Assembly (NCBI RefSeq): GCF_003334385.1
Contig: NZ_QOWN01000040.1
From: Escherichia coli
GTDB taxonomy: Bacteria; Pseudomonadota; Gammaproteobacteria; Enterobacterales; Enterobacteriaceae
Direction: 5' to 3' (one strand)
Length of the DNA stretch: 38,787 nucleotides
Position 1 is the first letter of the stretch; each line of letters starts with the position of its first letter. Positions 24,001 to 38,673 of the stretch are shown here, one piece after another. Made by a program: the position numbers.

Positions 24001-27000
24001 GGCAGCAACTTGCGCTGGCCGCACGGCAGTATTACGGACAGCGCCTTGGCGAACTGTCACAGGCCATGAGCCAGGGGAGCGTAAGATGAAAGACGACAAC
24101 AGCATCGACGAAAAAAAACCGGCCCCCCGTCTCCGCCGCATCGGTGATATAGGGATAAATCTGTTCGCACCACTGGCCGAAACCCGCTGGATGCTGCGCA
24201 GCTGCCGCCATATGCTGGACCAGCATAAAACGCGCCTGAAGCGCCTCATGCCCGACCGGCAACCGGAGAGTCCGGTCTGTATGACCTGGGAGGAAGCGGT
24301 CAGGGCCAGCGGACTGACGGTCGACGAACTGGACCGGCGTCTGCGACGTCGCAGGATGTTCTGGCGGACAGGATTCTGGCTGATGATGATACCGGTACTT
24401 CTGCTGTGTGGTATGGCCCTTGCGGCCACCGCACTGCCGGTCATCACCCTGATACGTATCCTGGTCTGCCTGTTACTGATGAGCACCATTGCAGCACTGT
24501 GTGCCTCAAAAGCCCTGATTGCGTCATACCGCCTCTGGCAGCTGAATGAACGTCGGGTCAGCGAGGACGAACAGGGCACATTCCCCGATTACCTGCAGGC
24601 CCGGCACGGCTGGAAACAGGCCACATGGCTGGCCATTACCCACCGGCAGTACTGACTGTCCGGTCTGCAATTTCTTTTCCTCATTCCGGGGGCTGATGCC
24701 CGGGCATCCCCTTCGGTTCCGGAGTTACCGTGAAAATCATACCCAGAGCACTGAGTGCAGGTCTGGCGCTGGCTGCCGTACCTGCACAGGCTTTCGTCAC
24801 CTATCAGGACATTGTGAGTGCCGCCACCAATCCGGATGACCTGTCGCGCCAGGCACTGGTCACCATTTTTGGTGATGTGGTCACAAATCCCCTGACAGCC
24901 AGCAGCAACACCATCATTGGCAACCTGTTCATGGTGTTTAACGCAATTATCGCCACGATGGGGATAGTCTGGTTTCTGTTTATTGGTATCCGTCATGCTG
25001 TCCGCACGGGACACCAGGGCAGTGTCTTTAACAACGGACGGGACGTCGTCGGCATACTCAGTGTCGTGAGTGGATTTTTGATGATTGTGCCCACCGCTTC
25101 CGGCTGGAGTCTGGCGCAACTGGTCATGCTGTGGGGCGCATCCATCATGGGCATCGGTTCCGCCAATATCATGGTTCAGACAGCGGCAGAAAACATTGCT
25201 GAAGGCTATTCAATGACCGTACAGCCAGTACATGTCTCCACCCGCACGGCAGCACGGGGAATTCTGGAGATGGAACTGTGCAAACACGCCATGAATACGG
25301 GCCTCAATGACTTTAACCGTACCGCACGTTCATCCACGCCGCCCATGAGCGAATCCTCACGGACAGAGAATGGCAGATATACCGTCACCGTCTCAAATGG
25401 CAGCGCCACCTGCGGGAGTGTGAGTCTCTCCGTGAAAGGAAACGGCAGTAACAAGCAGTCCGCGCTGGCCCATTTTTTCAATCCCTTCATTGAAACGGAA
25501 TATCAGGGGGTTCTGAGGGCACAGCGCTCCGCCATGGATACCATGCTCCGTGACCTGGACAGCGCGGCGCAGGAATTTGTGTCAGCGTACCGGACCCGGC
25601 GCGACACGGGTAACGGCAACCTGCCGGATATTGAAAGCCGTATTCAGAAGGCTGCCAACAGGTATGAAGAAACGGTGCAGAAGGCGTTGCCAACAGATAA
25701 CGCAGAAACTGAGCGCAGGGAGCAGCTGAAATCCTACCTGACCACCTACGGCTGGGTTGCCCTGGGCGCCTGGTACCAGACCTTTGCCACCGCCAACCAG
25801 CGACTGGCTGAACTGGCCGACCGTGCTCCTACAGTGAGTGGCGTCTCGTCACTGGGCGAAGCCGGGGATACGGAATTCCTGAAGGAAGTCAAGGGGGCTT
25901 ACCAGGCACAGCTACAGAACTCAGCGTATACTCCTGCACTGGGAACAACCACCTCTGCCAGTGAATACCACGCATCTAATACTCAAAATCCTCAATCAGC
26001 CCTGTTAGAGTTCATAGGGCCAGGGTTAACTCGATTTTCAAATAAAGTAGCAATCATACATTCAGGAACAGGAACAACGAGTCAGCAGGCAAATCCTCTG
26101 CTGAAGATGAAGGACATTGGTGATTACACCATGGTCACAACCGAAACCATCTGGGCGGGTTATACCACCGTCAGGGTGCTTTCTACTGCCGGCAGCAACT
26201 CCGTTTTTGGCCGACTGGTCAATGCCGTCAGCGGCTTATCTGATGCAGCAAAGGCTTTTCTGGAGGCCTCCGCACCACCACTCTACTTCCTGCTGTTTTT
26301 GCTGTTCTGTGCCGGTTTTTCGTTATCTATTTACCTGCCGTTTATCCCGTTTATCTTCTGGATGACCGGCATCGGCAACTGGATAGTCAGCGTACTGATT
26401 GGATGTGCTGCTGGCCCCCTGTGGGCCGCCACCCATCTGGGAACAAGTCAGGACCGGGGAAGCCGGGCCGCTTACGGTTACATCTACCTGATAGACAGCA
26501 TGATCAGACCGCTGCTGATGGTGTTCGGGTTCTTTTTTGCATCAGTCGCCATCGTGGCCGGCGGCACAATCCTGAATGCGCTGTATGCTGCTGCACTGAT
26601 GAATGTCCAGATAAACTCTGTGACGGGCGTGTTCAGCATGGCGGGATTTTTGATGATTTATGCCCGCGCCTGTACCACACTGGTTGCAGCCGTTTTTGCG
26701 CTTCAGGCTTATCTGCCTGACCATGTAATTAATTTTCTGGGCGGACGTGACGGTGTTAATATGTTGGGGAATATGGTTTCTTCAGTCAAAGATATTATTG
26801 CCGGAGGTAATACCAATATGCGCAGAACACCTGGCGTTCGTGAAGAAAAACTGAAAAATATTAATAGAGATGATAAAGACGGAATAAAACAATAAAATGA
26901 AAACATAGAAAAACCAATAAAACAGCATTGCCATATTCACCTGAAGAGTTTAAAATATATTCAGGTGAATATGGAGGTTTATTATGAACAAAACAAAAAG

Positions 27001-36000: not shown

Positions 36001-38673
36001 GGGCTACCAACTTCGATCCGGAATCGCAAAAAAACCGGCCTCACCAGTCGGTTTTTTTGCGTCTGTACCTCCTCCCCGGACAGCAGTTCTCTCACTCCCG
36101 TTGAATATTTCCTGTTGAATTTTACGAAAATACGGCAAATGGGAGATATCGAATATATTTACTTGGGTGTAGTCGGTAAAAACCAGCTCATGTTTGACTC
36201 ACAGAAACAGGCTCTGGAAGTACAGAAAGTAATCTGTCCGTAGATTATTAAAGGGCAGAGGGCGGTGACCCTCTGCCCTTAAGTACGTTTCCGGGATTAT
36301 CAGTCAACCAGTTCCCGGATCAGTTCCAGGATTGCTATCACTGCGTTAGCCACAGCAACAACCGCCCTGAGAACGATGATTAACAGGTTAATCATCCGTT
36401 TCTCCATCAATGGAGGAAGTCACCGTTGCTTGCTCATACATCGCCTGTCACAACGGCTCTCTGACATTGTTGGATGTAGAGTACATTCCCCCCTGCCAGA
36501 GCACTGAACACAGCACCACCTGTTTGTTCAGCCAGGACTTTAATTCATCCATACACAGATAGAACAGGTTTTAGAAGCAAGGGAGGCACACTGTACAGCG
36601 CCAACACAAAGATTATACAGATGCACACATAAAATTCATTTAAAGAAATGAATATTGACAGGCAATCTGAAGTCAAACTAGACAACAGATGTCTGGTGCC
36701 ATAATATTATGGATGTTGGATGTAGAGTATCTTCCTCCGGTCAGAGCACCAACTCCGCTCCGGAATCACAAAAAACCGGCCTCACCAGTCGGTTTTTTTG
36801 TACCTGTCTCCCACCACCTTCTGCCGTTCGCTCTTCTCTGTGAAAATGTCCTGTTGAACTCATTCCTGTCCGGTTATTACCGGCGCTGATTCGCATTCAT
36901 GCCACCCGACTTAATCCCGAAATTTATCCATTCATCTATGGAGGAATCCCCGTGTCTTACCAACAGACGTCTGCCGCCGAAGATCCAATGGCTATATGGT
37001 ATATCGTCGGTGCCATATGCCTGCTCTTTGCGATTATCATCTGGCGCTTTTTACCTGAAATCGTCTTCGCCTCCTGCCTGATCCTGCACACACTGTGGGG
37101 CATGATTGACTGGGGGCCCTTTCACAACTTTGCCGCCCCCCGTTACAACCTGCTGGCCATCACTGCTAACAACGCGGCAACCATCACTTTCGGCCAGTGG
37201 CTGGATGTTATGTCCCGGACAGTGGGGATCCTCTGGTTGATTCTGCTTCCCATGACATTCGGCTTTCTGTGGATGTGGTTTCACCATCCGGCCCAGCCCC
37301 GTTTTACCCGCAGGCCACTGAATATCCACACACTGCCCCATATTTTTTCAGCTCTGTCACCGGCGATCGCCCCCGTTCTGGCTGATGGAGACAACAACAG
37401 ACTCTTCCACGGACAAAAACGTCCCGAGCGCCGTGTCGCACTAACCCCCGAAGTCTTTGTGGAGCAGAACAACCTTATCCGCAACATGCAGCTCGATGTT
37501 GCGTCCACACGCCAGTGCTTCATGGCGCAACTGGGGCAACCACTGACCAGCTGGAAAGACATGGCCCCACATGAAAAAGCGCTCTTTGCCATCTTTGGCC
37601 TGCAGTTCTTCCTCGGTGACCGGAAAGCAGCGGTAGCCCTGATGAACAACCTCAATCTCTCCTGCAGGCTCAAAAGTAAACGGGACCAGGGGCGTTTCAG
37701 CACGCCGGTGTATTCACTGGCCAGAAACGCCTTTATCCGGGTCATCAAAACAGAAGGCGCACAACAGTGGCTCAGGCAGCACCGTTACGTTCGCAGCGGT
37801 CTGGTCTGGCTTTACGCACATGATTTGCGCCTGACGCCTCCGAACTGGCTGTGGCTCAAGGGCGTTGACCGGACGCTCTTCTATGCCCTTCACCGGGCAA
37901 ACACCACAAAAGGCTTCATCGAAGGGGCCGGCGTGGTGGCCGTTGCCCGGGCAGAAAATGAAGCCAGCCGTCTCGGCCTCCCCTGCCCGGAACCCTGTGT
38001 GGAAGAGGCCATTGAAGGGCTTCGACGGGACATGCTGGGGCTGGGCCTGATATGGGACGAACCTCAGCCAGATCGCGATCGTAAACGTCAGATCAGGACC
38101 CGCTGGTCACTCACGGATGACGTGATACCCCGCCGCCATGATAACGACGAAGACACTGACACTGGTGAAACCACCGAAACCACCGAAACCACCGAAACCA
38201 CCGAAACCACCGAAACCACCGAAAAACAGCATCCCGCCGACAAGGAAAAAGAACAATGACCATCCACTACACTGCAACACTGAATAATAAACACCTGTCC
38301 CTGACCGCCCTGTACCCTGACGGTAATCGGGAGGTGATTGCCATCCTGCCAGTCACAGAACTGGGCGCACTGATTAACCGTAATAACAGGCTGATGCACC
38401 TGTCCTTCAGTTCCCCTTTTCGCGAAATAACCGAAACGGTGCTTGTTGATACCGTTGATGCAGAACGTCCCGGACATCACATCGGCAGAATGCTCTCAGC
38501 GATTGATGCCTGCCTGGATGCCGAATATGCCGGAAAAGGAAAACATCCCTCCCGGAAAAATGGCTTCTGGCGGACACTGATGTGTGGCTTTATCGCCGGA
38601 ATTGCTCTGCCGGCGACAGTTGCAGGTTACCACTGGATGAAGGCAGAGCCCCCTTCCACGCTGGCTTACCCTA

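Follow-up and report, generated by a model that had tools for sequence, protein, structure and literature searches.

The stretch analysed here (the window, 38,787 bp of the Escherichia coli contig NZ_QOWN01000040.1) carries part of the transfer region of an I-complex plasmid, in which an AT-rich block lies between the surface exclusion gene excA and trbA of an otherwise GC-rich backbone. The block holds toxin-antitoxin (TA) loci, small open reading frames (ORFs), nuclease-type genes and a module encoding a transferase and a DUF2569 membrane protein. Its features are listed below by window position and strand; GC3 denotes GC at third codon positions.

26720–37060: AT-rich block as delimited by segmentation, GC 0.432 inside and 0.575 outside
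26984–27634, plus strand: excA, IncI1-type surface exclusion protein (NCBIfam NF033891)
27723–29563, plus strand: optional cassette in the slot between excA and hok, GC 0.395, GC3 0.31
27908–29494, plus strand: 528-residue protein with a sigma-70 region 4 helix-turn-helix and a TnsA-like N-terminal nuclease domain (Pfam)
29632–29938, minus strand: hok/sok (pnd-type) type I TA locus; Hok ORF 29632–29784 (50 residues), sok match 29782–29938
30036–31234, plus strand: orf106, orf127 and orf71, small conserved hypothetical ORFs; orf106 is annotated as a 243-bp ORF in relatives
31231–31455, plus strand: unannotated 74-residue ANR-like ORF (AraC negative regulator family; NCBIfam NF033650)
31407–33977, minus strand: transferase/DUF2569 module, GC 0.368; 27 bp stand in its place in NZ_CP069999
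31687–33231, minus strand: putative sulfatase-fold phosphoethanolamine transferase, 514 residues (Pfam Sulfatase)
33428–33892, minus strand: DUF2569 membrane protein, 154 residues
31633–31666 and 33390–33415: module hairpins
33976–34656, minus strand: ECs1377-family winged helix-turn-helix protein (NF052300, 296.8 bits against a cutoff of 190; Pfam HTH_39); a 624-bp ORF in relatives
34759–35226, plus strand: nuc, thermonuclease (SNase) family, from homologue annotation and SNase-type matches in NCBIfam and PADLOC
35377–36060: first dqlB unit; orf58 35377–35553 (plus), DqlB of 31 residues 35616–35711 (minus), AgrB-like antisense RNA 35973–36060 (plus)
36143–36807: second dqlB/agrB unit, a diverged tandem copy; orf58 remnant 36145–36229, dqlB-2 36300–36395 (minus), AgrB-like RNA 36716–36801 (plus)
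36952–38259, plus strand: trbA, 92–98% nucleotide identity to annotated trbA; the GC-rich backbone resumes

In a 1-kb sliding profile, GC content is 0.55–0.61 in the tra backbone and 0.33–0.50 over ~26.5–37 kb. Maximum-likelihood two-breakpoint segmentation of 19.5–38.8 kb places the edges of the low-GC block at 26720 and 37060, within ~100–200 bp of the limits given in a preliminary description of the window, which had recognised an AT-rich block in a GC-rich backbone. By segment, GC is 0.551 (1–26900), 0.433 (26901–36950) and 0.550 (36951–38787), a contrast of ~24 binomial standard errors. Because coding and non-coding DNA of the interval share the same GC (0.432 and 0.439), the drop is not just intergenic, and an excess of non-coding DNA was rejected as its source. 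The block is also patchy: the TnsA_N/sigma-70 region 4 gene (0.395, GC3 0.31), the transferase gene (0.402, GC3 0.35) and the DUF2569 gene (0.284, GC3 0.25) are very AT-rich, and orf127 and orf71 (0.52–0.54) and ECs1377 and nuc (0.52–0.53) have higher GC.

A search of PLSDB with a 12.5-kb region of the window matched 3,353 plasmids; the top matches, including NZ_CP069999 and pMS7163B, are collinear at 96–97% identity but cover just 78% of the query. The traU–traY, excA and trbABC order of the window is collinear with plasmids typed MPF_I/MOBP, as in the I-complex, and its ExcA is an IncI1-type surface exclusion protein (NF033891, 254 bits against a cutoff of 100). Because the tra genes are just 66–74% identical in nucleotide sequence to those of R64 (NC_005014), the window falls outside the R64 cluster, that is, outside IncI1 sensu stricto. 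It is best classified as a B/O/K/Z-like I-complex plasmid of the ‘cluster 2’ of PMC10286972. No replicon (RNAI/repZ) lies within the 38.8-kb window; its relatives are typed IncI1/B/O or IncK2/Z.

The interval between excA and trbA was measured for length and GC in 10 relatives. It is AT-rich in all of them (GC 0.43–0.48, compared with 0.555–0.573 in the adjacent tra DNA, or ~0.50 for the tra genes of R64) and ranges from 2,274 bp in R64 to 9,317 bp; in the window’s own branch of the I-complex, an AT-rich interval of 4.7–9.3 kb with these genes is the norm. NZ_CP069999 (L001), the nearest relative, is collinear with the window at 99% identity over 22500–31406 and 98% over 33978–36142, its gene order after excA being the TnsA_N gene, hok, the small ORFs, ECs1377, nuc, orf58, dqlB and trbA. 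Just two pieces of the block differ, 31407–33977 (2,571 bp) and ~36143–36730 (the second dqlB unit, ~0.6 kb). Plasmids of the pMS7163B and NZ_CP069999 type (cluster 2; PMC10286972) are thus 98–99% identical to the window and collinear with it over traV–orf71 and ECs1377–dqlB, but they lack the transferase/DUF2569 module and the second dqlB unit and have another ANR-like allele and another trbA 5’ allele. In pOkiPb01694_1 (L005, NZ_AP042565) the gene order from excA to trbA is that of the window, both dqlB copies included, in an interval of 9,275 bp with GC 0.433, although this plasmid is ~4–6% diverged throughout. The IncK2/Z plasmid pJKHS006_1 (L002, NZ_CP147067) has the same allele of the transferase module at 99.9% identity, but differs in an insertion sequence (IS), IS1, between the two module genes, in a DUF1778/GNAT TA cassette instead of the TnsA_N gene and in its diverged excA and traY.

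R64 resembles the window in having an AT-rich interval (0.446 against ~0.50 in tra) that holds hok (pnd), dqlB and an orf58 homologue, but the interval lacks the TnsA_N, ECs1377, SNase-type nuc and transferase genes. Its content is a HEAT-repeat ORF, the orf58 homologue, dqlB, a 252-bp ORF and hok; the presence of pnd there goes back to Furuya and Komano 1996, as cited in PMC10286972. The expectation in the preliminary description that exc directly precedes trbABC in IncI1 is roughly right as to the shortness of the R64 interval, but the interval is not empty.

The occupants of the interval vary from slot to slot. In the alignment, the first variable slot is anchored on its left by the conserved excA terminator hairpin, which ends at ~27722; homology among the occupants of that slot stops exactly there. 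The TnsA_N gene found here is matched in 471 PLSDB plasmids and complete in 286 of the 471. Alternative occupants between excA and hok are the DUF1778/GNAT TA pair (pJKHS006_1) or a remnant (pTA142-2, L003, and a second IncK2/Z plasmid, L004), and a HEAT-repeat ORF (R64 and the IncK2/Z plasmid NZ_CP016548, L019). The hok locus is present in all relatives examined, R64 included; its sok element matches Rfam RF01794 at 125.6 bits (gathering score 59), which identifies it as hok/sok. The ECs1377–nuc pair occurs in 493 PLSDB plasmids. Downstream of it, the dqlB units form a tandem with a repeat period of ~684–743 bp and 80–94% identity. Both 31-residue ORFs match genes annotated dqlB in relatives, and both AgrB-like RNAs match Rfam RF02891 (47.7 and 51.8 bits, gathering score 40), as in dinQ-like dqlB/agrB systems. 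The second unit is absent from NZ_CP069999 and present in pJKHS006_1, pOkiPb01694_1 and p20AR0300C (L006).

Crossovers were read from difference-position maps, per-gene identities and, on the trbA side, a 150-bp identity profile. Relative to NZ_CP069999, the window has 4 differences in 29500–31275; from 31276 on they are closely spaced, amounting to ~4% as far as 34552, and beyond that they are few. Relative to pJKHS006_1, differences are dense up to 30524, and only 4 occur over 30525–34552, its IS1 not counted. The segments 30525–31275 and 34553 to ~36140 are near-identical in NZ_CP069999 and pJKHS006_1 and form the left and right arms around a ~3.3-kb patch, and a further patch lies at the trbA end:

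31276–34552: candidate recombinant patch of ~3.3 kb, pJKHS006_1-like, including the 2.57 kb that NZ_CP069999 is without
36730–37850: third mosaic patch, pTA142-2 99–100% identical over 36800–37850, with 93% in the first 150-bp bin; other relatives 77–96%

The left crossover (31276) falls inside the ANR-like ORF, whose allele in the ‘empty’ plasmids without the module is ~82% identical, and the right crossover (~34552) falls inside the ECs1377 gene. The third patch runs from upstream of trbA into the 5’ part of the gene; a crossover lies inside trbA at ~37850, beyond which the window switches to 100% identity with the NZ_CP069999 and pJKHS006_1 types. At least three lineages thus appear to be joined at crossovers in conserved sequence (~31276, 34552, 36730 and 37850), a pattern that indicates homologous recombination.

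Synonymous divergence (dS) gives a measure of age. Relative to pOkiPb01694_1, backbone and block show a uniform dS (traY 0.147, excA 0.18, transferase 0.149, DUF2569 0.098, ECs1377 0.134), and the module has therefore co-diverged with the backbone. Relative to the IncK2/Z plasmids, dS is ~1.0 for the transferase, 1.6 for DUF2569 and 0.6–1.3 for nuc, compared with 0.08–0.25 for traX and traY; deep allelic lineages therefore reside on a more homogeneous transfer backbone.

We conclude, with a probability of roughly 0.8, that the block is a resident hypervariable accessory interval between excA and trbA of I-complex plasmids, reshuffled by homologous recombination, and not one insertion. Small modules would sit in fixed slots between anchors, namely the excA terminator, the hok locus, the ECs1377–nuc pair, the dqlB locus and trbA. 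The modules would comprise the sigma-70 region 4/TnsA_N gene, hok/sok, the small ORFs including the ANR-like one, the transferase with DUF2569, ECs1377 with nuc, and one or two dqlB/agrB loci; across the family, the presence, absence or replacement of each would be independent of the others. Homologous recombination between relatives, crossing over within the conserved anchors, would generate new combinations. The window itself could have been assembled from a NZ_CP069999-like backbone (to 31275) joined to a 3.3-kb patch with a rare transferase/DUF2569 allele (31276–34552); a shared segment and a duplicated dqlB unit would then lead to a 1.1-kb patch of the pTA142-2 type that spans the start of trbA (36730–37850). 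Such a process also explains why no IS or transposase edges are seen, because homologous recombination with crossovers in conserved sequence leaves no element boundaries. The preliminary description had judged the means of acquisition not visible; this holds for element edges, but the difference maps do locate homologous-recombination crossovers.

The competing proposal of a single recent acquisition, in which transposition or site-specific integration placed ~9–10 kb of foreign AT-rich DNA into an IncI1 backbone, between its excA and trbA genes, is very improbable, even though it would fit the sharp GC step at both ends, an R64 interval of just 2.3 kb and the TnsA-like domain in the block. 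The interval is AT-rich and populated in every relative examined, R64 included, its parts are distributed independently (493, 471 and 111 plasmids), and orf127/orf71, ECs1377 and nuc have GC ~0.52. The transposase, terminal inverted repeats and target-site duplication of transposon or IS cargo were not found, nor was an integrase or TnsB/C/D; none of the window ORFs searched matched a transposase or integrase family in NCBIfam, PADLOC or PHROGs, in agreement with the preliminary description, which had seen no transposase or IS boundaries. That description had also taken the block for ~9 kb of cargo wedged into an IncI1 backbone. This is not sustained: the window is not R64-type, ~7 kb of the block is standard in ~470–490 PLSDB plasmids, block genes and backbone genes have equal dS relative to pOkiPb01694_1, and because the latter carries the same genes in the same order with the same composition, a new one-piece insertion is ruled out. 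A narrower alternative concerns only the transferase/DUF2569 module, which could be ancestral to the branch, the ‘empty’ NZ_CP069999 form having arisen by deletion, for example by slippage between 13-nucleotide repeats. Copies of the module at three levels of divergence (99.9%, 94% and 78% nucleotide identity) share one slot, the module has co-diverged with the backbone relative to pOkiPb01694_1, and a 12/13 direct repeat (31409 and 33950; chance 0.2–1%) lies exactly at both of its edges. The empty site of NZ_CP069999, however, is unlike a simple deletion product in that its ANR allele is just ~82% identical to that of the window, and the repeat is conserved neither in pOkiPb01694_1 (10/13) nor in pTA142-2 and L004. 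A deletion origin is thus possible but rather unlikely; it bears on how the polymorphism arose and is compatible with spread by recombination. This repeat was the one find of a junction search for short direct repeats suggested in the preliminary description, the TnsA_N cassette having no terminal repeats; as a mechanism it is suggestive, but it was not adopted since it is not conserved in relatives.

The AT-richness itself could be functionally selected instead of being a foreign footprint, for example through H-NS-type silencing of costly accessory genes or through the closely packed promoters and antisense RNAs that three type I TA loci bring. Low GC is kept in all lineages although their tra genes are just 66–74% identical to R64, module alleles reach dS of at least 1 without amelioration, and three type I TA loci with antisense RNAs do lie in the block. 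Yet the coding DNA is no less AT-rich than the non-coding DNA, and the deviation peaks at the third codon positions of two large genes (GC3 0.25–0.35). This pattern fits mutational or donor composition better than regulatory-site density, and promoter-like sites are not in excess (11, against 12.2 in shuffled sequence). Selection for AT-richness is therefore a tentative idea, with the odds somewhat against it. Xenogeneic silencing of AT-rich DNA is established in Enterobacteriaceae, and we infer that the interval probably stays AT-rich as a set of horizontally acquired accessory genes silenced by nucleoid proteins.

For the interpretation as a reshuffled resident interval, composition, synteny, crossover positions, module prevalence and the co-divergence of module and backbone relative to pOkiPb01694_1 are direct observations. 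The exchange would be RecA-type recombination between co-resident plasmids, and the direction of each exchange is likewise conditional. Several points weigh against the interpretation. Recombination is deduced from mosaic identity patterns in ~10 loci, and the cause of the AT-richness is likewise deduced. The IncK2/Z plasmid pJKHS006_1 may be the recipient of a segment from a window-like plasmid and not the donor. Faster evolution of the interval genes could account for part of their high dS, and values of ~1 or more approach saturation. Finally, the 12/13 edge repeat is, suggestively, compatible with an illegitimate insertion or deletion behind the filled/empty polymorphism.

Within the block, the transferase/DUF2569 module is the sole element of some interest; the block is otherwise ordinary. 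The transferase has an N-terminal membrane domain and a Pfam Sulfatase domain (E = 1.2e-38), with a weak EptA_B_N match (E = 0.0035), and its GES, Thr, GSH and SDHG motifs align with EptC 5zzu, the best solved match (E = 4e-22). The metal-binding Glu, Thr nucleophile and His/Asp-His motifs, together with the membrane domain, are those of the sulfatase-fold phosphoethanolamine transferase superfamily. The fold and catalytic motifs are thus common to EptC/CptA, EptA, MCR and the window protein, but the curated family cutoffs are not reached: the scores are 102 bits for CptA (cutoff 404), 36–73 for EptA (561–660) and 20–26 for MCR (1225–1250), and the protein is far under the EptB model cutoff too. 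On these scores it would not be a member of the MCR/EptA family. Judging from the fold and catalytic motifs, its most likely role is the transfer of phosphoethanolamine, on the periplasmic side, to a glycolipid or glycan of the envelope. No paper characterising this plasmid transferase was found in the literature.

In PLSDB, the transferase occurs at ≥60% amino acid identity on 111 plasmids, one at 100% and 110 at 72–77% (~73%), and the window thus carries a rare allele of the module. Among 5,426 complete E. coli genomes, the gene was found on plasmids alone. Wherever its context was examined, it sits immediately upstream of ECs1377 and is accompanied by DUF2569. Relatives at 38–54% identity come from short contigs or chromosomal contexts, where several adjoin integrase genes and often an outer-membrane beta-barrel gene, with no DUF2569 beside them; none of 6 contexts sampled off plasmids had the transferase–DUF2569 pairing, which was seen just on I-complex plasmids. 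Relatives at ~50% identity (L007, L009, L010 and L014) lie directly downstream of a gene for an Ail/OmpX-like outer-membrane beta-barrel protein; the E. coli relative (L009) is in an integrase-bearing island near speC, and the Salmonella copy (L014) is on a 12-kb contig. One hairpin (31633–31666) lies between the convergent ANR-like and transferase genes and another (33415–33390) follows DUF2569, which suggests separate transcription units. A promoter scan of the module gave no excess over shuffled sequence, and no operon claim is based on it.

With a dN/dS of 0.17–0.26, the module genes show purifying selection. IS1 lies between the transferase and DUF2569 genes of pJKHS006_1 (L002 8011–8708), and in p20AR0300C (L006 6244–6948) IS26 truncates the transferase, leaving DUF2569 at 100% identity; IS elements are eroding the rare allele in the only other plasmids that carry it. 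Lipopolysaccharide (LPS) is the receptor of the PilV adhesins of I-complex thin pili. It is a long shot, though one worth stating, that the transferase and DUF2569 form a plasmid-specific envelope-modification module kept under purifying selection, which might decorate LPS and so alter mating partners or sensitivity to phages or cationic peptides. If this were true, LPS decoration by the module could act as a surface-exclusion or recipient-specificity function.

The 528-residue protein of the excA–hok slot corresponds to pCT_066 of the IncK plasmid pCT (PMC3377399, PMC4083329), which occupies the same slot beside pndACB; both 40-nucleotide recombineering primers match the window gene with 0 mismatches. 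Although pCT_066 is labelled a ‘putative sigma-70 factor’, this type of protein is probably not a bona fide sigma factor and the name a misnomer, because its domains are just sigma-70 region 4 and a TnsA-like nuclease domain. The TnsA domain prompted a Tn7-like origin, which was rejected: no tnsB/C/D homologue is in the block, and no terminal repeats flank the cassette. The same fusion is found, within one protein, in many other bacteria. It defines a protein family whose I-complex plasmid members are one near-clonal E. coli cluster, the next relatives being at 55–59% identity in Dickeya, Pectobacterium, Salmonella and Providencia, and at 30–42% in Xanthomonas and Streptomyces. The protein also has a weak match (27 bits) to the MzaA sigma factor of the MZA anti-phage system; PADLOC made no defence-system assignment for the block genes, giving just weak SspB and SNase-type matches. 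In the same slot of the IncK2/Z plasmids, a short 5’ remnant of a DUF1778 antitoxin gene (L003 ~4948–5104; same place in L004) indicates decay of the DUF1778/GNAT cassette that is intact in pJKHS006_1, as judged from the sequence.

Of the small ORFs, orf71 matches a PHROG family of unknown function. The ANR-like ORF scores 31.7 bits against NF033650 in the window, 28.2 in pTA142-2 (L003 10772–11095) and 20.6 in NZ_CP069999 (L001 ~8732–8983), the cutoff being 32; it is unannotated in NZ_CP069999, pJKHS006_1 and pOkiPb01694_1 and just a ‘hypothetical protein’ in pTA142-2. In the ‘empty’ plasmids this ORF and the ECs1377 gene are convergent, the ORF overlapping the 3’ end of the latter. The orf127–orf71–ANR-like trio lies upstream of the transferase in the window (30632–31455) and downstream of nuc in pTA142-2 (L003 10172–11095), at 72% nucleotide identity and dS 1.8. 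Modules thus seem to have been reordered within the interval too. At the other end, the TrbA C-terminus (window 38150–38300) carries a (TETTE)n-type repeat, ...GETTETTETTETTETTETTEKQ, and in this 3’ bin identity to every relative falls to 70–88%, which suggests that the trbA 3’ end is a length-variable tandem repeat.

Previous work bears on the dispensability of these genes. In pCT, inactivating pCT_066 or pndACB left stability, conjugation, growth, biofilm and competitive fitness unchanged (PMC4083329). In transposon-directed insertion-site sequencing of pMS7163B (CP026855), the interval was dispensable for maintenance and surface conjugation; pnd was the sole interval gene flagged for conjugation, and a defined mutant behaved like wild type (PMC10286972). 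Because neither study found any of them needed, the interval genes are accessory, as the preliminary description had supposed.

Two further AT-rich dips, at 6.0–7.5 kb and 18–19.5 kb, lie outside the block and correspond to the following segments:

6441–7482: AT-rich segment of 1,042 bp between icmT/traK and an LPD7 (sogL-like) gene, absent from NZ_CP069999 and complete in 37 of 444 relatives
17908–19244: AT-rich segment, 1,337 bp, in the slot between traT and traU; also missing from NZ_CP069999, complete in 74 of 447 relatives

The first contains a 193-residue ORF (6648–7229, GC 0.383) with no family match, and the equivalent slot of R64 holds a PLD-family nuclease. The second contains ORFs at 17735–18139, 18136–18519 and 18492–19037 (minus strand, GC 0.359). 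The ORFs of both segments gave nothing in NCBIfam and PADLOC, and in PHROGs just one weak match of unknown function (18492–19037). In NZ_CP016548 (L019 1–4024), the slot between traT and traU holds ISEcp1-blaCMY-2-blc-sugE; this slot is a cargo hot spot.

The AT-rich stretch is therefore an already-known standing variable region and not a newly captured island, and R64 is an unsuitable reference for it. Automated annotation sometimes labels the transferase a ‘lipid A phosphoethanolamine transferase’, and ~111 PLSDB plasmids carry this gene, whose product would fall outside the MCR/EptA family. In this backbone an AT-rich dip is a reliable sign of an optional slot, and homologous recombination between relatives would be enough to explain the movement of modules without mobile-element scars.

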